Made by a program: the position numbers and the translations under genes. A DNA stretch of 29,932 nt from a virus (taxonomy: Duplodnaviria > Heunggongvirae > Uroviricota > Caudoviricetes). Each line of letters opens with the position of its first letter. Within the stretch, counting starts at the first letter, position 1. The notes beneath the pieces are model-generated. The model saw only the letters and a list, made by a program, of their open reading frames with translations, searched no databases and had not been told where the DNA came from. Below are positions 3,973 through 29,371 of the stretch, piece after piece. The stretch lies in the IMG/VR virus record IMGVR_UViG_640753024_000007, positions 1 through 29,932 of that record. One strand, written 5' to 3'.

Positions 3973-4176
3973 TTACGGCGCTGTTTTTAATCCTGCCGGG
4001 ATTTCGTTATTGTCCATGTGAATAACTTTATCGACCGGATAACAGTTGCCGGGAATTTTCTGTTCCGCTGCGGCAGCCATGCATTCTTTCATTGAGTTGT
4101 ACATGCCGGTGATTGCATCAAGCGACTCACCAGTATTGAGATGTACAGTCAGAATGAGTACGAATAATGTGTTCAT
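3973..4176 (-). CDS. Small hypothetical protein with N-terminal hydrophobic (signal-like) segment
   Basis: GGAGA Shine-Dalgarno 6 nt before the ATG at 4176; ATGA overlap with the stop of the upstream DicB-like gene; hydrophobic N-terminus LFVLILTVHL. Confidence 0.5.
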   Translation of the reverse strand: MNTLFVLILTVHLNTGESLDAITGMYNSMKECMAAAAEQKIPGNCYPVDKVIHMDNNEIPAGLKTAP

Positions 4177-4929: not shown

Positions 4930-5070
4930 GATAGCAGCCTCGTTAGTGAATTTGATTAACTCACCACCAAGGTTTTCCACGACCATAAGGGTGGTGAGAC
5001 GTACAGGGGTGGAAATACCGGTCACTAACGAACCCGGCCAGCCTTGCGGCTGCCCTGCACGTCCCACCAT

Positions 5071-5098
5071 AATCTGAATGTGGCTGTGCATTACGCAT
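5071..5098 (-). terminator. Putative intrinsic terminator in the leader upstream of rha
   Basis: On the minus strand: ACCGC-gctcag-GCGGT followed by TTTTTTT. Confidence 0.45.
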
Positions 5099-5446
5099 AA
5101 AAAAACCGCCTGAGCGCGGTTATGCGCGTTAGTGAACATCGGGTTTCCACGCCCGGCACCCGTTTTATGAGGTGCAGGTGCACTATAATTCCACCCGTTC
5201 TGGTTTTCAATAGCTACATTCAACATTTTCTCTACCTTTCATCACCTAAGTGAACTTTGTGATGCGGTGCCTGGTGCCTCCAGGTGACGTTAACCAGTTA
5301 ACAATTAACGCCGGATGATTCACCCATAACACTTGTGTTTTTAACTGTTCTGCGTGCGCTGAGCCGCATTCACCGCATCACGAAATTCACTTTTTACTTC
5401 ATAGACCGTGATATGATTTAGCTTTCCACAGTAAAAAGGAGTGTTT

Positions 5447-6817: not shown

Positions 6818-6931
6818 GTTGACCTCATTTCCCCTTAACGCTGGGGTGGCGGAACTGTTTGCTGAGAACACCGTGCGGTGTCTTGATGGGTGGTAATTTA
6901 GTTTTCTCATGAATGTTGGTCAAGTGTTTTT

Positions 6932-6947
6932 AATGAGAAAACTCAAT
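6932..6947. promoter_or_regulatory. Operator-like palindrome TGAGaaaaCTCA (second copy)
   Basis: Shares the core TGAG-AAAA-CTCA with the palindrome in the dicA/dicC divergent region; sits just downstream of dicA at the head of the minus-strand small-gene operon. Confidence 0.45.
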
Positions 6948-7007
6948 ATTTAATGCAAAATAAAGCCAATACATTGAAATGTAAGGCTTTAAAATTTGTG
7001 AAGGGGG

Positions 7008-7415
7008 TTACTGATGTTTGTTACGTTTGCGAGCTTCTAGTAGCTCGGTGAATAGGCGATTAAAATTCTCAACGCGGGCACGGAGTTCGCTGATTTGTGC
7101 TTGCTGCTCTGATTTTGGAAGTGCGCGATACAATCGCAACATCTCCAACTCATCTTCCGATAAGTCTAAGGCGCTGTTGAGTGCAACTGGTGGATCTGGT
7201 GTTTTATCCTCGTCACCAAACAGTATCCAAGTTGGTGAACATTGCAATACCTCAGCCAGGCGATGCAAATTTTGCCCACGCGGGGCTGTATGGTCGCTTT
7301 CCCATAGTGAAATTGATGAGCCAGATACGCCAGCGGCTTTGCTTAAATCGTTTTGACTTAAACCAACCTGTTTGCGTCTTTCTCTAATTCGTTGACCTAA
7401 AGTTTTCTCGTTCAT
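7008..7415 (-). CDS. dicA: HTH XRE-family repressor, DicA-like (cI functional analog)
   Basis: 135-aa ORF; the segment LQCSPTWILFGDEDK and the C-terminal ELRARVENFNRLFTELLEARKRN closely match my recollection of E. coli DicA. Confidence 0.85.
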   Translation of the reverse strand: MNEKTLGQRIRERRKQVGLSQNDLSKAAGVSGSSISLWESDHTAPRGQNLHRLAEVLQCSPTWILFGDEDKTPDPPVALNSALDLSEDELEMLRLYRALPKSEQQAQISELRARVENFNRLFTELLEARKRNKHQ

Positions 7416-7464
7416 ATTTAGATATCTTAATAACCCTTGACTTGAGATTCCTTGAGTGATTACT

Positions 7465-7480
7465 ATTGAGAAAACTCAAT
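7465..7480. promoter_or_regulatory. Operator-like palindrome ATTGAGaaaaCTCAAT in the dicA/dicC divergent promoter region
   Basis: Perfect 6-bp arms with a 4-bp spacer, between divergent repressor and Cro-like genes. Confidence 0.5.
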
Positions 7481-7492
7481 TTTGGAGGGGTG

Positions 7493-7720
7493 ATGTTTAA
7501 ATCAGACGTAATTAATTTTTATGGGACGAAAGCCAAAGTAGCGAAAGCTGCTGGTGTTGATCCATCTGCTGTTTCTCAATGGGGGGAACTGGTTCCTGAA
7601 GGTCGCGCGATGCGCCTGCAAGAGGCATCCGGCGGGGAACTTCAGTACGACCCCAAAGTTTATGACGAATATCGTAAGGCAAAGCGGGCGGGGCGGTTGA
7701 ACAATGAAAATCACCCCTGA
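7493..7720 (+). CDS. Cro/DicC/YdaS-like small regulator
   Basis: Divergent from the dicA-like gene; GGAGGGG RBS before ATG 7493; 75 aa. Confidence 0.7.
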   Translation: MFKSDVINFYGTKAKVAKAAGVDPSAVSQWGELVPEGRAMRLQEASGGELQYDPKVYDEYRKAKRAGRLNNENHP

Positions 7721-8255
7721 ACAGGTTTGTGAGGCTCTGGATGCCTGGGTATGCCGACCAGGAATGACGCAGGAGCAGGCGACGATATTAATCACGGAAG
7801 CATTCTGGGCTCTGAAAGAACGCCCGAACATCGATGTTCAACGCGTCACGTTTAATGATGGCGAGGTTGATCAACGGGCGCTGGGCGTTAACCGGGTGAA
7901 GATATTCGAACGCTGGAAAGCTATCGACACCAGGGATAAGCGGGAAAAATTCACGGCGCTGATTCCGGCAATTATGGAGGCTATCCGGATCAGCGATTTC
8001 AGGTTGTATTGTGAAATTACTGACGGAAAAAGCATTACATACATGATCGCCGGATTAAACAAAGAATATGGCGATGTGGTGGAGTCCGGGCTGCTTTTTG
8101 CGGATCCATCTGTTGTGGAACGTGAGACTGACGAGCTTATAGAAAAAGCTATTGCTTTCAAGCATGCGTATCGTCAGCAATATCAATATTACTTTGCAGA
8201 TAAACAAATGTCTGCCAGGGGTTCGTATGAGTATCGATGCACTACGATGGGCTAA
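7704..8255 (+). CDS. YdaT-like protein
   Basis: Lies immediately downstream of the Cro-like gene, the position ydaT holds after ydaS in Rac as I recall; N-terminus MKITPEQVCEALDAWV and the motif LIPAIMEAI recall YdaT. Confidence 0.6.
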   Translation: MKITPEQVCEALDAWVCRPGMTQEQATILITEAFWALKERPNIDVQRVTFNDGEVDQRALGVNRVKIFERWKAIDTRDKREKFTALIPAIMEAIRISDFRLYCEITDGKSITYMIAGLNKEYGDVVESGLLFADPSVVERETDELIEKAIAFKHAYRQQYQYYFADKQMSARGSYEYRCTTMG

Positions 8256-9267
8256 AAAGGTGAAAACCGGAAGTTCATCCAGTAAGTCTGTATTGACCTG
8301 GCTTGCTGATATGTGCGGTGCCGATTTGTGTGCATACCCGTCTGTATCTGCACTGGCAGAAGTAACGGAACTAAACAAAAAGACTGTGCAGGACAGCTTA
8401 CGACACCTGATGGAGATTGGGTTAATTGTTGATACCGGTGAGAGAAAAGGCAGAACAAAGCAAATTGTGGTGTACCGACTTATCGGTGTAGAAGAAAGTG
8501 TTGCCGAGCTTGAATACACCCAAAAACGGGAGTCTTTAAAGGTGGGTAAAATTGGTGCTGTTAATAAAAACAGTACCGAAAATGGTTATGTTTCAGCACA
8601 AAACAGACCCAAAAACGGAACTCTTAGCTGCATGGAAAATAACCAAAGACACCCAAATTTTCCATCAAAGACACCCAAAAACGGATCACGGAACCCAAAG
8701 GAACCCAAAGATCTAAACCCCACACATAACGCACGCGAGAGTGCTCCGACCAGTGAGCAGGAAGTTTTGTCGTTACAGGCAGCACCCCTTGTATTCCTGG
8801 ATGGCCTGAGCGAACCCATCGGAAAATTTCCGATGACCGATAGCTGGTATCCGTCACGGGATTTTCGACGACGGGCTGCGTTGTGGGGGATGGCTTTGCC
8901 GGAGACAGAATTTACACCTGCTGAACTTGCCGCCTTCCGGGACTACTGGGCAGCGGAGGGGAAAGTGTTTACGCAGATTCAGTGGGAGCAGAAATTCGCC
9001 CGTCACGTAAATCACGTCAGGGCGCAGGTTAAACCAGTCAGCAAGGGGGTAAACCATGCAGCAGCACCAGGTGGCACCGCATCACGGGCAGTTCAGGAAA
9101 TTCGGGCAGCACGTGAGCAGTGGGAACGTGAAAACGGATTTATCAGCGACGGAAACGGTCTGGAAGCTGTGGGAACTCATGGGGGAGGTTTATTCGAACC
9201 GCTGGACCCAGAAGAACGGGGCCGCACCTTCGAAGCTCTGGATTGTACAGATTGGCGCGATGACTGA
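8227..9267 (+). CDS. Replication initiation protein (lambda O functional analog)
   Basis: Sits before a lambda P-like gene; N-terminal HTH-like region; contains an internal iteron cluster; start chosen at ATG 8227 (MSIDALRWAKKV) rather than the ORF-track start at 8152. Confidence 0.65.
   Translation: MSIDALRWAKKVKTGSSSSKSVLTWLADMCGADLCAYPSVSALAEVTELNKKTVQDSLRHLMEIGLIVDTGERKGRTKQIVVYRLIGVEESVAELEYTQKRESLKVGKIGAVNKNSTENGYVSAQNRPKNGTLSCMENNQRHPNFPSKTPKNGSRNPKEPKDLNPTHNARESAPTSEQEVLSLQAAPLVFLDGLSEPIGKFPMTDSWYPSRDFRRRAALWGMALPETEFTPAELAAFRDYWAAEGKVFTQIQWEQKFARHVNHVRAQVKPVSKGVNHAAAPGGTASRAVQEIRAAREQWERENGFISDGNGLEAVGTHGGGLFEPLDPEERGRTFEALDCTDWRDD
8600..8715. repeat. Iteron-like direct repeats (candidate replication origin) inside the O-like gene
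   Basis: Five or more copies of (A)GAC(A)CCCAAA within about 110 bp, including a tandem GGAACCCAAAG pair. Confidence 0.5.
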
Positions 9268-9721
9268 GCAGCAAATCCGACAGGTTTGCCGCCAGTGCAT
9301 GGACCGCTGCCGGGCGGGTGAAACATGGCCTCCAGACCTGGCTGAGTTTGTGACACTGATTTCGGAAAGCGGAGCCAATTCATTCGGTCTGACGGTGGAT
9401 GCTGTGATGGAGGAGTACCGCCGCTGGCGCAATGAGTCCTGGCGATATGACGGAAGTGATAAGTACCCGTGGCCTCAGCCTGTGCTGTATCACATTTGCC
9501 TCGAGATGCGTTCAAAGGGGATTGAGCGTCAGATGACCGAAGGGGAATTAAAACGGCTTGCAGAACGGCAGCTGACGAAATGGGCAAAGCAGGTTGGTAT
9601 GGGCCGGAGTGTTCCGCCAGTCCGGCGACAACTGGCAGCACCAGAACGCCCACCGGGGCCAACGCCAATTGAGTTGCTGAAACAGGAATATGAGCGCCGG
9701 AAGGCAGCTGGTTTTGTATGA
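9056..9721 (+). CDS. Replication protein P-like (helicase loader)
   Basis: Segments EQQIRQVCRQCMDRCRAGETWPPDLAEFV and YPWPQPVLYHICLEMRS align with my recollection of lambda P; AGGGGG RBS before ATG 9056; 5' 212 nt overlap the O-like ORF in another frame. Confidence 0.7.
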   Translation: MQQHQVAPHHGQFRKFGQHVSSGNVKTDLSATETVWKLWELMGEVYSNRWTQKNGAAPSKLWIVQIGAMTEQQIRQVCRQCMDRCRAGETWPPDLAEFVTLISESGANSFGLTVDAVMEEYRRWRNESWRYDGSDKYPWPQPVLYHICLEMRSKGIERQMTEGELKRLAERQLTKWAKQVGMGRSVPPVRRQLAAPERPPGPTPIELLKQEYERRKAAGFV

Positions 9722-10146
9722 ATTGTGAAGGTGATTTTTCAGGAGGAGTTGTGGCAAAAGTATATACACCCGAACAGAGGGAGGAGCTGAAGGCTCGAAT
9801 CATCGCTCTGGTGCGCAAAAATGAACGCATGACGATGTCGCAACTGGAGAGAGCGACGGGAGCAGGCTGGCATTCGGTCCGACGTTGCCTTGTGGATGTA
9901 CTGGCTTGTGGCGATTTATACATGTCCGGGAAGTACGGTGTTTTTGCATCAGAGCAGGCGTATCGCGTATGGCGTAAGACACCGGAGAAAACAACTGACC
10001 AGACACTGATTCGAAAGTTACCAGACGGAGAAATACGTCGTTATGACAGGCACCAGAACATAATTTGTCGTGAGAGCAGGAGGAGCGAAGTTATGCAGCG
10101 TGTGCTGGCGTTCTATCGGGGAAACTTTCAGGAGGTGATGGAGTGA
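9718..10146 (+). CDS. Hypothetical protein (142 aa)
   Basis: ATGA overlap with the P-like stop; no recognised motifs. Confidence 0.6.
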   Translation: MNCEGDFSGGVVAKVYTPEQREELKARIIALVRKNERMTMSQLERATGAGWHSVRRCLVDVLACGDLYMSGKYGVFASEQAYRVWRKTPEKTTDQTLIRKLPDGEIRRYDRHQNIICRESRRSEVMQRVLAFYRGNFQEVME

Positions 10147-10439
10147 GGGTGAGAGTTTATATTGCCGGTCCAATGACGGGATATGAAAATTTCAACCGTG
10201 AGGCGTTTCACAAGGCGGAAGATGAACTGAAACGGGAAGGGCATACCGTCTTAAACCCGGCAGTACTTCCGGACGGGCTGACACAGCCACACTACATGGA
10301 TATCTGCATGGCGATGATTCGTTGCGTGGATGCGATTTACATGCTGCAAGGCTGGCAGCGGTCAGCAGGCGCTAAGGCGGAACTGGCGCTGGCGGAGAGG
10401 CTGGGGCATGCAGTTATTTTCCAGGAGGAGGTACAGTGA
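10143..10439 (+). CDS. DUF4406-family protein (nucleoside 2-deoxyribosyltransferase-like fold)
   Basis: N-terminal VYIAGPMTG signature; GTG start with an AGGAGG RBS. Confidence 0.65.
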   Translation: MRVRVYIAGPMTGYENFNREAFHKAEDELKREGHTVLNPAVLPDGLTQPHYMDICMAMIRCVDAIYMLQGWQRSAGAKAELALAERLGHAVIFQEEVQ

Positions 10440-11070: not shown

Positions 11071-11625
11071 TCAATTATCTAAAATTGTGCTAAATCTTTT
11101 TATTACCATTAAGAACGTTATAACAGTGATAAAAAAGGATGTATAGGCTAAAAAGCTAACAATATATGCAGGTGCGCGAAAATACCATTTCATTAAATCC
11201 ACTGCATTGTCAGGCAGGAAATATATTATCACTGAAAATATAACCAATACTATTGAAGTTAATATTGCATAAGCGACGTTGTGGCATAACTGCTCATATA
11301 TGGTTTTGTTAGTGTTTAATGATATCAATTTGTCTCGGGATTTGTTTCCTTCAATTATGTCTGATATCTTAGTGATGGTTTTTTGTTTTTGTTCATAAAT
11401 CATTATTACTGCACTCATTAATAGTGCTGTTGTAATAGCCCCGAAGTTAACGAAGACGGAAGCAATTGCCGGTTTCATTATTCCGTATGTCCGGCACAGA
11501 ACGAAAGAAAGAGATAACGGAACAATAAAATGTACGATAATGTCGCTCATCAACATTGTTCCACGCTGATCTGACATTGTTTTGTAGTGTTTTATTATTA
11601 CACCCAGCACATTTATTTTATTCAT
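11071..11625 (-). CDS. Four-TM small membrane protein, candidate effector of a two-gene module
   Basis: 184-aa ORF with four hydrophobic helices; its ATG overlaps the stop of the upstream 310-aa gene (ATGA); very AT-rich. Confidence 0.65.
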   Translation of the reverse strand: MNKINVLGVIIKHYKTMSDQRGTMLMSDIIVHFIVPLSLSFVLCRTYGIMKPAIASVFVNFGAITTALLMSAVIMIYEQKQKTITKISDIIEGNKSRDKLISLNTNKTIYEQLCHNVAYAILTSIVLVIFSVIIYFLPDNAVDLMKWYFRAPAYIVSFLAYTSFFITVITFLMVIKRFSTILDN

Positions 11626-12554
11626 ATAATCACCCCTTTGTTTCCGCTATGCAGTTCTAACAATATATCATTAGAAAGGTTTTTTATCGTGTCATGAAGT
11701 GCTGTTAGATCAGGTATGCCTGTTAATGGGTCGATTTTTAAATCATTATCATCTAACTCTGCAGAAATTCCTTTTTTTAGTATAGTCTCATAATTGAAAA
11801 CGACAGTCCGACTGCCGAGTTGTAAGCTTACTTTTATTGCATCACATTTATCTTCAATAATCTCAATGATGTTTCCTATATTCTTGTTTCTTAAATCCCT
11901 GAAACTTCCGAACATGCCATCGTTTGCTTTTATTATTAAGTCTGTCTTGATGTTTGTTTTGTTTTGACCAAAGGAATCAGCAATGTCTTTTGGTGCTTTA
12001 TATCCTTGAGCCTTAATTTGTTTTAATTCGGAATTGAGAATATATTGAGGGATTTTCTTATGATGTAATGGATTGATTCTTGCTTCGAGTTGAAATTTGT
12101 TTTTTAGATATTCAGTGATAGAATCAGAAAGGACACCTCGGGCAGAAATATTATCGCAAGAGTGGAATGCAATAATTCCTTCTTCAAGGGCGTCTGGTAG
12201 GTATATTAAAATATAACGTTCTTTGAGTGTTACATCATAAGCAGTTGTCCTGTAGTGGATTTTTTTGAGTTTTACATCTTTTATTTCACTGCTTTCTCCA
12301 TATTTCCCAACTTTTATATAACCATATATAATTTTCTTTGAGTTATCAAAGTGAAGTTTAGCGTGTTGTTCCAGAGATATTTTAGTTTTGGATACGCCAA
12401 ACTCGATGGGGGTGTTTTTATATAGAGTAAAATAATCAACAAAAAGTTCATATGCCGTTTTTTTATTACTTAAACCCAATTCATTAAGTTTTTTGCTGGC
12501 TCGACTGCCTTTATGGGTCAATACGCGGAATGAATAGAAATTAACGCTGTGCAT
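11622..12554 (-). CDS. 310-aa soluble protein of unknown function, candidate sensor/partner of the membrane protein
   Basis: AAAGGA RBS; Lys/Ile/Asn-rich, AT-rich composition unlike the flanking prophage genes. Confidence 0.65.
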   Translation of the reverse strand: MHSVNFYSFRVLTHKGSRASKKLNELGLSNKKTAYELFVDYFTLYKNTPIEFGVSKTKISLEQHAKLHFDNSKKIIYGYIKVGKYGESSEIKDVKLKKIHYRTTAYDVTLKERYILIYLPDALEEGIIAFHSCDNISARGVLSDSITEYLKNKFQLEARINPLHHKKIPQYILNSELKQIKAQGYKAPKDIADSFGQNKTNIKTDLIIKANDGMFGSFRDLRNKNIGNIIEIIEDKCDAIKVSLQLGSRTVVFNYETILKKGISAELDDNDLKIDPLTGIPDLTALHDTIKNLSNDILLELHSGNKGVII

Positions 12555-12980
12555 GAAAAGTCCTTTTGAACATATAGGAATATACTAGAACATAAATAGA
12601 TGCAATGCATAAAGGAAAAGCTACCGCAGGGCGCACTCACCCACCGATAGCTCTTAACTGCTTGTTTGTAAAAGATAATACATAAATTTGGGTCTGTGTA
12701 AAGAGGTAAGCATCGTCAGGGCAAGGGAGATGTGTTAGGCAATATTGGTAAAATTTACGTTGAGGATAAAAACGGTTTGCGGGAAAAGGAGAGTTAAGTA
12801 GAATTGCTGCGGGTGCTTGAGGCTATCTGTCTCAGGCATGAACACCAAAAGGCAGATAGAGAAAAGCCCCAGTTAACATTACGCGTCCTGCAAGACGCTT
12901 AACATTAATCTGAGGCCCAATCTATGTCTCACAAATGTAGGTTAGCCTCTTACGTGCCGAAAGGCAAGGAGAAGCAGGCT

Positions 12981-13136
12981 ATGAAGCAGCAAAAGGCGAT
13001 GTTAATCGCCCTGATCGTCATCTGTTTAACCGTCATAGTGACGGCACTGGTAACGAGGAAAGACCTCTGCGAGGTACGAATCCGAACCGGCCAGACGGAG
13101 GTCGCTGTCTTCGCAGCTTACGAACCTGAGGAGTAA
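12981..13136 (+). CDS. hokD: Hok/Gef-family type I toxin
   Basis: MKQQKAMLIALIVICLTVIVTALVTRKDLCEVRIRTGQTEVAVFAAYEPEE matches the Hok family and the HokD/RelF sequence as I recall it; AGGAGA RBS; an in-frame upstream extension from 12924 occupies the mok position. Confidence 0.85.
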   Translation: MKQQKAMLIALIVICLTVIVTALVTRKDLCEVRIRTGQTEVAVFAAYEPEE

Positions 13137-13604: not shown

Positions 13605-13670
13605 ACTCATCTACAATCTTGCGCGGGGCTGAACTCCCGCTGAGTAACACCGTGCCACCGGAGGAAACCG

Positions 13671-16105: not shown

Positions 16106-16130
16106 AACCCGCTTAAATGCGGGTTTTTTG
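16106..16130 (+). terminator. Intrinsic terminator downstream of Q
   Basis: CCCGC-ttaaat-GCGGG followed by TTTTTT. Confidence 0.7.
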
Positions 16131-16202
16131 CTTAACTCTGTGGACCTTTTTATCTGTAGTTGTAAGATATGGATATTCTTACAATTTAGGTCGGTGAGCT
16201 TA

Positions 16203-16967
16203 ATGGAAGAACAGCACGGTAATTACTTTATAAAACGAATTCAGTTGATTGGAAGAGGTGCATTTGGCTTTGTTGAACACGTTAAGGTTTACAACCTCAA
16301 CAAGGGTGAATGTGGGGATTATGCTAGAAAGGTTTTAGCCCCCGAAAAACCAGAGCTTTTGGCGCAAATAGAGCAGTTTAGAAGGCGTTTTAAAAGGGAG
16401 GTCGTGTATCAATCACATTGCGTACATAGCAATATTGTTCCTATTTATTTGTGCGATTTGTTTGCCGAGAATCCATGGTTCATTATGGATAAAGCAGAAT
16501 GTGATCTTGAGCACGAAATAACGAACAACCTTCTTACAACAGATCAAAAAATTTCAATAGTGAAAATGGTATTAGATGGTGTAGCTCACATCCATGCGAA
16601 AGGCTATTTACACAGAGATATAAAACCATTTAATGTCTTGCGATTTAGCGACGGAACATACAAGGTGTCTGATTTTGGTCTGGTAAAAGATACAAATCCC
16701 GAAGGGGATACCACTAAATTGACCGAGATCGGTACCCGTATGGGAAGTACAAGATATATGGCTCCCGAGATTTTATATAATGCCGAGTATTCAGTTAAGA
16801 CTGATGTTTATGCGGTGGGGCGGTTAATTGAGGACTTAAATTTAGATGATAAAAAAATAAAGCCTATCATAGCGAAGTGTACCAGGATGGATAAAGATGA
16901 TAGATATCAGACAATAGATGATGTGGCGTTTGATTTTGTGCATTCTTTTTTAAGGAGTGAGTCATGA
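16203..16967 (+). CDS. Hanks-type Ser/Thr protein kinase (kinase domain only)
   Basis: Gly-loop GRGAFGFV, beta3 Lys in YARKVL, catalytic loop HRDIKPFN, DFG, APE; AT-rich. Confidence 0.85.
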   Translation: MEEQHGNYFIKRIQLIGRGAFGFVEHVKVYNLNKGECGDYARKVLAPEKPELLAQIEQFRRRFKREVVYQSHCVHSNIVPIYLCDLFAENPWFIMDKAECDLEHEITNNLLTTDQKISIVKMVLDGVAHIHAKGYLHRDIKPFNVLRFSDGTYKVSDFGLVKDTNPEGDTTKLTEIGTRMGSTRYMAPEILYNAEYSVKTDVYAVGRLIEDLNLDDKKIKPIIAKCTRMDKDDRYQTIDDVAFDFVHSFLRSES

Positions 16968-17707
16968 TTCAGCTGATAGCGACTTCATCATTCTCGTATC
17001 CAAAAGAACCAGGTAGGGTCAACGAAGATTCATTGCTTCCTCCCAAAATTGTAGGGGATGGCATCTTATTTGCCGTAGCTGATGGTGTAGGTTCATACAC
17101 TGGTGCCAGTCAGGCTTCATCAATGGCAATTGCTGAGCTTTCAGCATTGACAAGCTTATCTTTTGACACAGTTCCGGATGTATTTGATGAAGTTAAGCGA
17201 AAGGTTATGTCGTTAGCTGATGTTAATGATGAGTTCGATAAAGCTGCTACTACACTTACGTTTTGTTATGTTTGTGATAGCGGAATTATTATTGGTCATA
17301 TTGGTGATTGTCGTTTGTATTGCATTGGAGAGAAGAAAGCATACCAATTGACGAAGGACGATACCAGGCATCAGATGCTAATTGATCAGAATATTTTTAA
17401 ACCCAGAGATTTGAAGGATAAACCGGGCAAAAATATCTTAACGACGGCTATAGCCTCAAATGTTGATATGGAATACGACTGTGATTTTATCACATGGAAA
17501 GATTTACCTAGTATTAACGGGGTATATCATCTGTGTATCATGTCTGATGGGGTTCATAACGTTTGGGAAAAACGCCCCAGATTTACATCAAATACGATGA
17601 GTAATAGTCAGAAGTTTTCTAATGGCATTTTGCGTCGTATAGAGAGAGCCGGACCTGATGATGACTTTTCTTTAGTAAGTATAATGGTGCGTGTGACGTC
17701 AGATTAG
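16964..17707 (+). CDS. PP2C-family (PPM) Ser/Thr phosphatase
   Basis: ATGA overlap with the kinase stop; metal-binding motifs NEDS, AVADGVGS, GDCR and SDGV. Confidence 0.8.
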   Translation: MIQLIATSSFSYPKEPGRVNEDSLLPPKIVGDGILFAVADGVGSYTGASQASSMAIAELSALTSLSFDTVPDVFDEVKRKVMSLADVNDEFDKAATTLTFCYVCDSGIIIGHIGDCRLYCIGEKKAYQLTKDDTRHQMLIDQNIFKPRDLKDKPGKNILTTAIASNVDMEYDCDFITWKDLPSINGVYHLCIMSDGVHNVWEKRPRFTSNTMSNSQKFSNGILRRIERAGPDDDFSLVSIMVRVTSD

Positions 17708-18274: not shown

Positions 18275-19321
18275 ATGGTTAATACTGTAAAAATATCCAG
18301 TTGTGAGTTAATCAACGCTGATTGCCTGGAATTTATCCAGACCTTACCGGAAAACTCTGTCGACCTGATAGTCACAGACCCGCCATACTTTAAAGTGAAG
18401 CCCGAGGGTTGGGATAACCAGTGGAAGGGCGACGATGATTACCTGAAATGGCTGGATCAGTGTCTGGCGCAATTCTGGCGGGTACTGAAACCTGCCGGAA
18501 GTCTCTACCTGTTCTGTGGTCATCGCCTGGCATCTGATATCGAAATCATGATGCGTCAGCGCTTTAATGTGCTGAACCACATTATCTGGGCGAAGCCGTC
18601 CGGACGCTGGAACGGATGCAACAAGGAAAGCCTGCGGGCGTATTTCCCGGCAACAGAACGCATTCTGTTTGCAGAACATTATCAGGGGCCATACCAGCCC
18701 AAAAATGACGGCTATGCGGCAAAGGGGCGCGAGCTAAAACAGCACGTCATGGCCCCGCTGATTTCTTACTTTCGTGATGCGCGTGAATCACTGGGAATAA
18801 CGTCAAAACAGATAGCGGAAGCCACCGGAAAGAAAAACATGGCTTCGCACTGGTTTGGTACCAGTCAGTGGCAGTTACCGAACGAGGGTGATTACAACAA
18901 ATTGCAGGAGTTGTTTGCGCGTGTTGCGGCAGAAAAACATCAGCGCGGGGAACTGGAAAAGCCACACCACCAGCTGGTCAGCACATACAGTGAACTGAAC
19001 CGGCAATATGCCAGCCTGCTGGCAGAGTACAAATCTTTACGGCGTTATTTTTCCGTATCGGCTGCTGTTCCTTATACGGATGTCTGGACGTACAAGCCAG
19101 TGCAGTATTATCCGGGCAAACATCCCTGTGAAAAACCAGCGGATATGTTACGTCAGATAATTACCGCCAGCAGTCGTCCGGGAGACTTGGTTGTCGACTT
19201 TTTTATGGGGTCAGGCTCCACAATTAAAGCCGCAATGACGCTGGGGCGTCGGGCAATTGGTGTGGAACTGGAAAAAGAGAGATTTAATCAAACTGTAACT
19301 GTAATAGAAAATAATCTTTAA
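18275..19321 (+). CDS. DNA methyltransferase (beta-class amino-MTase, DPPY motif; N6-adenine or N4-cytosine)
   Basis: Motif IV LIVTDPPYF lies N-terminal to motif I DFFMGSGST (beta-class order); no adjacent restriction endonuclease. Confidence 0.85.
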   Translation: MVNTVKISSCELINADCLEFIQTLPENSVDLIVTDPPYFKVKPEGWDNQWKGDDDYLKWLDQCLAQFWRVLKPAGSLYLFCGHRLASDIEIMMRQRFNVLNHIIWAKPSGRWNGCNKESLRAYFPATERILFAEHYQGPYQPKNDGYAAKGRELKQHVMAPLISYFRDARESLGITSKQIAEATGKKNMASHWFGTSQWQLPNEGDYNKLQELFARVAAEKHQRGELEKPHHQLVSTYSELNRQYASLLAEYKSLRRYFSVSAAVPYTDVWTYKPVQYYPGKHPCEKPADMLRQIITASSRPGDLVVDFFMGSGSTIKAAMTLGRRAIGVELEKERFNQTVTVIENNL

Positions 19322-19487: not shown

Positions 19488-19563
<76 letters not shown>

Positions 19564-19566
19564 TAT

Positions 19567-19641
<75 letters not shown>

Positions 19642-29188: not shown

Positions 29189-29371
29189 TGACGTCCTCTA
29201 GTGGTTTCTAAACTTAAACTATCACCACCGTCAGGTTCCAATCATCGGGTGGTGAGACGCACAGGGTTGGAACTACCGGGAAACCGACCGACGAGCTTTT
29301 CAGCTCCCCCATGCGCCCCACAATAATTCATATGTGCGCGTGCATACGAGAAAAAACACTTGTTATATCTG

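Follow-up and report, generated by a model that had tools for sequence, protein, structure and literature searches.

The window analysed here is the whole 29,932-nucleotide (nt) stretch that makes up positions 1 to 29,932 of IMG/VR virus record IMGVR_UViG_640753024_000007 (Caudoviricetes). It contains a prophage replication module in which an O-like initiator gene is followed by a lambda-P-like helicase-loader gene, both on the + strand (Table 1). The encoded initiator has an HTH_36-type N-terminal domain, a linker and a DnaT-like C-terminal domain. The DNA between the parts of the gene that encode the two domains contains a cluster of direct repeats, which an earlier sequence-only reading of the window had taken to mark a probable origin of replication. 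Our analysis points the same way. The repeats are probably the binding sites (iterons) of the initiator and the array an origin of the lambda type inside the initiator gene, a reading to which we assign a probability of about 0.8 from sequence evidence.

Anatomy of the repeat array

A 12-mer, ACCCAAAAACGG, occurs in exact copies at 8518, 8607 and 8673, all on the + strand, and there is no fourth exact copy on either strand across the 29.9-kb window. With up to two mismatches there are nine matches, a number attained in none of 100 shuffles. The heptamer ACCCAAA occurs ten times in the window when both strands are counted; six of these ten fall inside 192 nt, all on the + strand. The shuffle mean is 6.18 per window, corresponding to about 0.02 expected in a 192-nt stretch, and the probability of six or more occurrences there is on the order of 1e-13 before correction for position. 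Chance clustering is rejected by the shuffles and by the ACCCAAA density. A repeat search returned a 24-nt family (8513, 8602 and 8668) and a 14-nt family (8644, 8666 and 8696), and found no clustered direct repeats between 6000 and 11000 besides the array within the initiator gene. Tandem Repeats Finder picks up a 10-nt duplication (GGAACCCAAA) only, because the iterons are dispersed.

The repeats span 8513-8709 as a dispersed direct repeat. Their location in a Pro/Lys/Asn-rich coding segment, as proposed in the sequence-only reading, is borne out by the translation of the open reading frame (ORF) at 8227-9267 (...YTQKRESLK...NRPKNGT...RHPNFPSKTPKNGSRNPKEPKD...). Units of the kind described there are present (AGACCCAAA at 8604, AGACACCCAAA at both 8648 and 8670, and a pair of GGAACCCAAA units within 8690-8709), but the repeat is longer and the array wider than proposed. 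Specifically, the proposed range of 8600-8715 leaves out the first copy (8518) and takes in the two GGAACCCAAA units, which are no iterons.

Six homologous iteron positions (I-VI, together 8513-8684) were defined by a nine-way alignment of sequences from seven genera, whose N-terminal domains are 55-76% identical, with pairwise alignment alongside. In the window, positions I, IV and VI have the exact core, position V is a variant, and positions II and III are decayed. Position V is variant in the relatives too, where it reads CCCAATTTTGG or the inverted-looking CCCGTTTTTTCC. Core VI is identical in all nine aligned sequences, and so in all seven genera. Iteron I with its flank is the same as in Edwardsiella phage EPP-1 at 26/26 nt, compared with 67% for the whole N-terminal/iteron stretch. 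The family consensus, derived from 87 exact-core sites in 34 genes, is AAnnnnCCCAAAAACGG(g)(a).

Each core contains an A5 tract. The partial dyad CCC-AAAAAC-GGG is present in the window only in iteron I, and iterons IV and VI finish in GG. Relatives have truly palindromic cores (CCCAAATTTGGG, CCCAAAATTGGG and ATCCCAAAAACGGGAT). These palindromic forms, with the partial dyad (CCC-N6-GGG) and the parallel to lambda O, suggest that the initiator may bind the iterons as dimers. The intact cores are separated by 89 and 66 nt, an irregular spacing that is not helically phased.

The array is followed by a conserved post-iteron block, which in relatives reads CGGAATCTACC.AAGGAACC.TAAAGATCT. Inside it, the 10-nt tandem is present in 2.1 copies at 8690-8710. 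The two units at 8690-8709 were considered as iterons and rejected; the alignment identifies them as a derived 10-nt tandem duplication within the block. A perfect 9-nt inverted repeat, 8632-8640 (ATGGAAAAT) and 8657-8665 (ATTTTCCAT), brackets position V, and part of it falls in a segment missing from the Edwardsiella group.

Table 1. Features of the replication module, in window coordinates
Feature	Position	Strand	Sequence	Remarks
Iteron I	8513..8531 (exact core 8519-8529)	+	AATACACCCAAAAACGGGA	encodes TQKR
Iteron position II, decayed	8538..8555 (core site 8545-8555)	+	GGTAAAATTGG (relatives: CCCAAAAACGG)	nine-way and pairwise alignment
Iteron position III, degenerate/decayed	8568..8585 (core site 8575-8585)	+	ACCGAAAATGG	repeat search and nine-way alignment
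Iteron IV	8602..8618 (exact core 8608-8618)	+	AACAGACCCAAAAACGG	encodes PKNG
Iteron position V, variant	8646..8663 (core site 8652-8663)	+	AAGACACCCAAATTTTCC (core site CCCAAATTTTCC)	left half-site retained
Iteron VI	8668..8684 (exact core 8674-8684)	+	AAGACACCCAAAAACGG	encodes PKNG
Post-iteron block, conserved	8685..8723	+		two GATC sites; Tandem Repeats Finder and alignment
Candidate low-stability stretch	8536..8600			65-70% A+T; between iterons I and IV; weak unwinding-site candidate
O-like replication initiator gene	8227..9267	+		346 amino acids (aa); HTH_36-type N-terminal domain, ~100-residue low-complexity linker, DnaT-like C-terminal domain
Predicted origin-binding N-terminal domain	8227..8496	+		HTH_36, winged-helix-like; aa 1 to ~90; conserved in 36 homologues
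DnaT-like C-terminal domain	8806..9060	+		aa 194-278; Pfam PF17948; NCBIfam DnaT profile 82-166
Lambda-P-like helicase-loader gene	9056..9721	+		Pfam Phage_lambda_P PF06992, 2.2e-16; PHROG 109 'P-like helicase loader', 2e-58
pR-like promoter	7437..7466	+		no other sigma-70-like site in 6900-10200; precedes the cro-like, ydaT-like, O-like and P-like genes; transcription from it would pass through the predicted origin

Selection on the DNA and inheritance with the N-terminal domain

Codon usage was analysed in 60 loci from one-genome-per-species contigs and in five phages, giving 65 distinct genes. The motif P[KE]NG occurs 80 times, in 35 of these genes and in many genera. Its proline is encoded by CCC in 80/80 cases (24% elsewhere in these genes), its lysine by AAA in 63/63, its glutamate by GAA in 17/17, and its asparagine by AAC in 77/80 (46% elsewhere). 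When the iteron word is read in a second frame it gives xQKR, where x is T, P, S or A. The 25 such motifs, in 19 genes, are encoded by NCC (24/25), CAA (25/25), AAA (25/25) and CGG (23/25), the last accounting for 13% of arginine codons elsewhere. Residue x varies while the last two nucleotides of its codon are fixed, and therefore selection acts on the DNA.

The window array itself is read in three frames, encoding TQKR at 8518, PKNG at 8607 and 8673, and the third frame (xPN/xPK) at 8651 and 8693. The annotated lambda iterons ITN1-4 are in frames 0, 2, 2 and 1. Across the family, the core CC[CG]AAAA(A)CGG lies at an offset of 270-540 nt in the gene and is nearly absent elsewhere on that strand of the 3.5-kb loci; matches on the opposite strand are few and mostly palindromic variants. 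Loci bearing the core come from Kluyvera, Scandinavium, Enterobacter, Edwardsiella, Plesiomonas, Serratia, Yersinia, Vibrio, Neptuniibacter, Pseudoalteromonas, Proteus, Providencia, Acinetobacter and others. Subfamilies without the main word have words of their own: many Acinetobacter loci have AACAGTCCCA(ACAATGG), and a Desulfovibrionaceae locus has CGCCCCCGAA. These 10-mers are present in 4-7 copies each, at the matching position of the gene, in all three frames and with a spacing of 17 or 22 nt, and with such spacings they are therefore not peptide repeats.

By these patterns, the repeats are selected as DNA and not as peptide. The sequence-only reading had named the possibility that they are purely coding; the codon tests speak against a peptide repeat and bring that possibility close to refutation, and we regard a pure-peptide reading as effectively excluded.

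The array is inherited with one end of the initiator. At the nucleotide level, the window is homologous to EPP-1 across the N-terminal domain and the array, up to ~8709, while homology to ydaU of Rac-SA53 starts at ~8707 and takes in the DnaT-like part as well as the P-like gene. The mosaic junction is thus at ~8707-8712, within the post-iteron block and just past the array. The Pfam architectures are HTH_36 + Phg_2220_C in EPP-1, HTH_36 + DnaT in the window (HTH_36 there below the cut-off) and in phiV10, and DUF1376 + DnaT in Rac-SA53 ydaU. Thus, EPP-1 has the same N-terminus and iterons with another C-terminus, and Rac-SA53 ydaU has the same C-terminus, another N-terminus and no iteron array of this kind in the gene. 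This mosaicism indicates that the iterons follow the HTH_36 domain in inheritance, whichever C-terminal domain is attached. In classical lambdoid hybrids, the N-terminus of O sets the specificity for ori and the C-terminus of O sets the specificity for P. The swaps seen here may be viewed, by analogy, as the natural counterpart of those hybrid experiments.

A probable lambda-type origin and the competing explanations

The use of three frames, the frozen synonymous sites, the co-inheritance with HTH_36 and the presence in every subfamily of its own array at the matching place all argue for the iteron cluster as the mark of a probable origin. The lambda-like arrangement within an O-like gene, to which the sequence-only reading had appealed, stands as well: the six positions lie between the HTH_36 part (to ~8496) and the DnaT-like part (from ~8806), and the initiator falls in 'O-like' PHROGs that it has in common with lambda O.

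In the lambdoid paradigm, the origin is situated in the middle of O, its iterons are bound by O dimers, and it is activated by transcription from pR (PMC7466680, PMC5043065). The window resembles lambda ori (ITN1-4 and an AT-rich region within O) in several respects. Specifically, the array lies inside the initiator gene between the N-terminal and C-terminal coding parts, the iterons are in several frames, their length is ~17-19 nt, the lambda core ATCCCTCAAAACGAGGGA resembles the window's (A)CACCCAAAAACGGGA, and the array has a P-family loader gene downstream and a pR/cro-type region upstream. It differs in that the N-terminal domain is probably of the Pfam HTH_36 type rather than Phage_rep_O, the C-terminal domain is DnaT-like and not the lambda O C-terminus, the intact cores are 89 and 66 nt apart compared with 20-24 nt in lambda, the AT-rich flank is absent, and the O-like and P-like genes overlap by ~212 nt.

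The N-terminal domain and the N-terminal part of lambda O share PHROGs 678, 345 and 391 ('replication initiation O-like'). The window initiator has no match to Pfam PF04492 (Phage_rep_O), which lambda O matches at 5.7e-36. Brezellec et al. 2017 used HHpred to assign lambda O to HTH_36, interpreted HTH_36 + DnaT_C proteins, which occur in pairs with P-like proteins, as lambdoid derivatives, and called iterons typical of the phage versions (PMC5509034). We base homology to lambda on the common PHROG profiles and on the published HHpred result, because direct comparison is weak. The locus is accordingly collinear with lambda O/ori and remotely homologous to it; we treat it as working like oriλ/O/P, as a remote relative outside Pfam Phage_rep_O.

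Other known systems share part of this arrangement. In the origins of Stx phages (933W and P27), the initiator gene likewise contains six iteron positions that differ in strength, with extra iterons lengthening the linker (PMC7466680). They are, however, true lambda O/ori alleles with near-identical iterons, whereas the window has another initiator family, another word and two decayed positions. The phiV10/epsilon15-type initiators (PHROG 1032) and the DopC/DopE proteins of Cellvibrionales and Oceanospirillales have the same domain architecture and gene pair (PMC5509034). phiV10 contains CCCAAAAACGGGAT three times in the corresponding linker, but in regular 24-nt tandem units, and its O and P genes overlap by 4 nt. 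DopC, whose ancestors are phage initiators of this group, is domesticated and chromosomal and is reported without iteron-like sequences (PMC5509034).

The C-terminal half of the window initiator and the P-like gene are ~90% identical to ydaU/ydaV of Rac-SA53, in which the N-terminal domain is DUF1376 and the gene has no such iteron array. The Rac prophage is cited as carrying an active origin, oriJ (PMC3945230), and a literature search found no source giving its exact position. Iteron plasmids of the P1, F, RK2 and pSC101 type likewise have replicon-specific initiator sites in an array beside the opening region (PMC5043065). Their iterons bind monomers, are usually helically phased, and lie outside the rep gene together with DnaA boxes, whereas the window array is intragenic and unphased. 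No DnaA box with up to one mismatch is present between 4026 and 12760, and none lies within 3.6 kb; the closest site with a single mismatch is at 4017.

We infer binding, unwinding, helicase loading and firing from this architecture, in the following order. Derepression of the pR-like promoter (7437-7466) would lead to production of the initiator. The N-terminal domain of the initiator would bind the iterons, probably as dimers, and form an O-some-like complex. The DnaT-like C-terminal domain and the P-like loader (9056-9721) would then recruit host DnaB, and may hold single-stranded DNA. Finally, the duplex would open beside or within the array.

Several observations weigh against the origin reading. 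BLASTP of the N-terminal half of the initiator against lambda O gave nothing meaningful. When an alignment of 36 N-terminal sequences was compared with the single lambda O sequence in hhalign, aa 41-86 fell on lambda O aa 73-118, a segment just upstream of lambda iteron 1; this match is collinear but weak (E 0.019, probability 2.5%). The initiator scores 20.9 bits against Pfam HTH_36, under the cut-off of 25; homologues at 33-76% identity score 30-52 bits, above the Pfam threshold. Most copies in the family share the PKNG frame, as in-frame duplication would give, and frame diversity is weaker evidence than the codon data. The core is intact at only three of the six ancestral positions. Duplex stability, calculated for 29 arrays as a nearest-neighbour profile with z-scores for the best 40-mer of the right flank, gives z = 0.36 for the right flank of the last iteron in the window, the lowest of all 29.

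The population data also weigh against the origin reading. In 80 near-identical E. coli copies from IMG/VR (97-99% identical; equivalent of 8497-8760), single-nucleotide polymorphisms (SNPs) affect 5/33 core positions and 43/264 flank positions, with no sign of purifying selection on the cores. The CGG of iteron IV is mutated in 19 of the 80 copies; iterons I and VI are nearly always intact. Moreover, no experiments on this origin or on close homologues were found, and a full-text search for the iteron string gave unrelated primers only.

In most relatives, as in lambda, duplex stability is lowest immediately to the right of the last iteron (z = 3.18 in lambda; median 1.88 and up to 4.2 in relatives). 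The AT-rich unwinding element adjoining the array, for which the sequence-only reading had proposed a search, is absent from this flank, and the search gave nothing convincing elsewhere in the window. Mildly unstable stretches are present only within the array, at 8536-8575 and 8632-8671; the former, with z = 1.3-1.6 (~7th percentile of the window), is not comparable to the AT-rich region of lambda. The window array resembles an ancestral origin that has undergone some erosion.

Erosion could have gone further, such that the array is a genuine ancestral origin that no longer fires in a defective lineage, with the initiator perhaps still binding some sites. We consider this possible, at clearly less than even odds. 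It would account for the two decayed positions and the variant among the six, the missing low-stability right flank, the undepleted core SNPs and the mutated iteron IV. It also fits a prophage that lacks most morphogenesis genes: the window begins with the integrase gene, and after Q there are no terminase, capsid or tail-shaft genes and the portal is truncated. The prophage thus does look defective, as the sequence-only reading had stated, and its PPompW relatives have been described as widespread, with all of them defective and none packaged (PMC8112680). A frameshifted allele exists as well. The GGAACCCAAA perfect tandem is slippage-prone, and E. coli 2013C_3997_C1 (NZ_CP074856.1) has lost exactly one unit, with the initiator split into an HTH-only protein and a DnaT-like pseudogene.

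Against such a loss of function, the window retains intact O-like and P-like ORFs, an intact promoter and three perfect cores, and unwinding in lambda requires no more than two iterons with the adjoining AT-rich region (PMC7466680). The module, as represented by its N-terminal/iteron part, is present at at least 95% identity in 907/5426 complete E. coli genomes. For PPompW prophages, relatively good conservation of the early regions has been reported, as have excision and circularisation in response to mitomycin C (PMC8112680).

A broader proposal concerns the site itself. CCCAAAAACGG, with its variants CCGAAAACGG, CCCAAAATTGG, CCCAACAATGG and CCCAAAAGTGG, could be a near-universal site of HTH_36-type phage initiators across Gammaproteobacteria, with lambda CCCTCAAAACGAGGG as an expanded relative, and arrays would be cross-bound by the initiators of unrelated phages and hence serve as decoys or be fired in trans. 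We regard this as doubtful. If it were true, unrelated co-resident or incoming phages, for example phiV10-like phages of E. coli O157, could cross-bind the arrays. In that case the array, which ~17% of complete E. coli genomes carry and which mostly sits in defective prophages, might hamper the replication of such phages as a decoy, or might alternatively be fired in trans by them, with amplification of prophage cargo such as effector genes.

A related account, which we judge distinctly unlikely, is that the binding sites are kept for a role other than initiation, either autoregulation of O/P or titration of the initiator of incoming phages by a decoy (replicative exclusion). Many unrelated phages, phiV10 of E. 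coli O157 among them, have initiators that share the core, so that cross-binding is conceivable, and the module is very common in defective prophages. Lambda iterons at an ectopic site prevent theta replication of phages with lambda-type replication (rep-lambda phages), even when the AT-rich region is not included; that effect, however, also required oop transcription (PMC3349717). There is no evidence of core selection within E. coli, and origin function alone accounts for the arrays in the active phages of the family.

The weakest alternative, a PKNG-type linker peptide generated by in-frame duplication with no role for the DNA, would explain the predominance of one frame and the 24-nt tandem units of phiV10, GF-2 and Vibrio phage Her, which encode N(D/R)P(K/E)NG(M/T/I)L in a single frame, but is very improbable in view of the synonymous sites frozen across genera, the constancy of NCC-CAA-AAA-CGG under a changing amino acid, the three frames of the window array, the 17/22-nt spacings in the two subfamilies and the association of iterons with the DNA-binding domain in the swaps.

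The principle of an intragenic origin is textbook knowledge. We found no published description of the iteron word or of origins in this initiator family, and the literature on oriJ and on DnaT-type initiators gave context only; the iteron word and the origins of the HTH_36 initiator family are thus the undescribed part. If the repeats are iterons of a lambda-type origin, a likely origin has been located for a replication module that about one-sixth of complete E. coli genomes contain, among them those of many O157, O145 and enteropathogenic E. coli (EPEC) strains, and that is currently annotated just as 'DnaT-like ssDNA-binding domain-containing protein'. The lambda rule that the origin lies inside the initiator gene would then extend to a large HTH_36 family, with a related iteron word, in phages of Enterobacterales, Vibrio, Acinetobacter, Pseudoalteromonas and others. 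Repetition of AAnnnnCCCAAAAACGG in the linker would be a simple signature for annotating such origins. The codon-freezing test provides a cheap and general means of telling intragenic DNA elements from peptide repeats. The gain is one of annotation and modest generalisation, not of concept.

The initiator gene, its neighbours and the prophage

The initiator matches the DnaT DNA-binding domain PF17948 over aa 201-267 (6.5e-17, 61.5 bits, cut-off 25), as well as the PDB chains of DnaT C-terminal domains 6AEP, 4OU6, 4OU7, 2RU8 and 9ZBT (E 1e-16 to 1e-19). The match to PHROG 1032 ('replication initiation protein') is 3e-90 over the full length and 6e-38 for the N-terminal part. The protein shares 98.7% identity with the 'phage replication protein' encoded by PPompW prophages in Shiga-toxin-producing E. 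coli. An AlphaFold2 model made without an alignment had a mean predicted local distance difference test (pLDDT) score of 38.9 and was not used.

The P-like gene probably starts at ATG 9056, after a strong Shine-Dalgarno sequence (AAGGGGGTAAACC-ATG). It encodes 221 aa and overlaps the initiator gene out of frame by 212 nt (9056-9267). The ATG and the Shine-Dalgarno sequence, at an overlap of 212-215 nt, are kept in Rac-SA53, Kluyvera, Scandinavium and Enterobacter. Public annotations give a later start and 141-154 aa, and the Pfam and PHROG alignments reach upstream of that start. PHROG 15931 (482 positions, function unknown) matches both the C-terminal half of the initiator and the P-like protein (window 8707-9721) with overlapping profile positions, which suggests that some database entries fuse the two overlapping genes.

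The genes of the region are arranged in the order cI-like (- strand), P22-Cro-like, YdaT-like, O-like and P-like. Imperfect direct repeats of ~31 nt, at 6845-6876 and 13627-13657 (GGC.GAACT...GCTGAG.AACACCGTGC), flank the segment that contains the immunity genes, the replication genes and hok/sok. Two records deposited as circular E. coli plasmids, NZ_CP148379.1 (8461 bp) and NZ_CP148543.1 (15643 bp), consist solely of a cI-like/cro/ydaT/O-like/P-like/cargo/hok-sok prophage segment, and no other replicon gene or RNA was found in either. The 8.46-kb record is collinear with chromosomal prophages of other strains, and the chromosome of its own strain is not among the full-length matches listed. 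This record begins and ends exactly at the novel junction, which is located at the imperfect direct repeat of 31 nt described above (6845-6876 and 13627-13657). The two records may be natural circles resembling lambda-dv, or unplaced contigs labelled as plasmids. The lambda-dv reading was downgraded because of the collinearity with other chromosomes, the unlisted own chromosome and the record ends at the junction, and we give these records little weight.

Rfam searches of the prophage identified a sok antitoxin RNA (hok/sok), two C4 antisense RNAs, isrK and two tRNA genes (12811-12986; 4987-5074; 5099-5175; 29245-29328; 19488-19638). Two adjoining ORFs on the - strand (184 aa and 310 aa; 11071-12554) lie between the replication module and the hok/sok-nin region, in a part that differs from PPompW. 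The 310-aa ORF, the one covered by the scan, has no Pfam match, and the pair may be a cargo or defence insert. Directly behind the Q antiterminator gene are genes for a eukaryote-like Ser/Thr protein kinase (16128-16967) and a PP2C phosphatase (16964-17707), and these are followed by a DNA methyltransferase gene (18275-19321).

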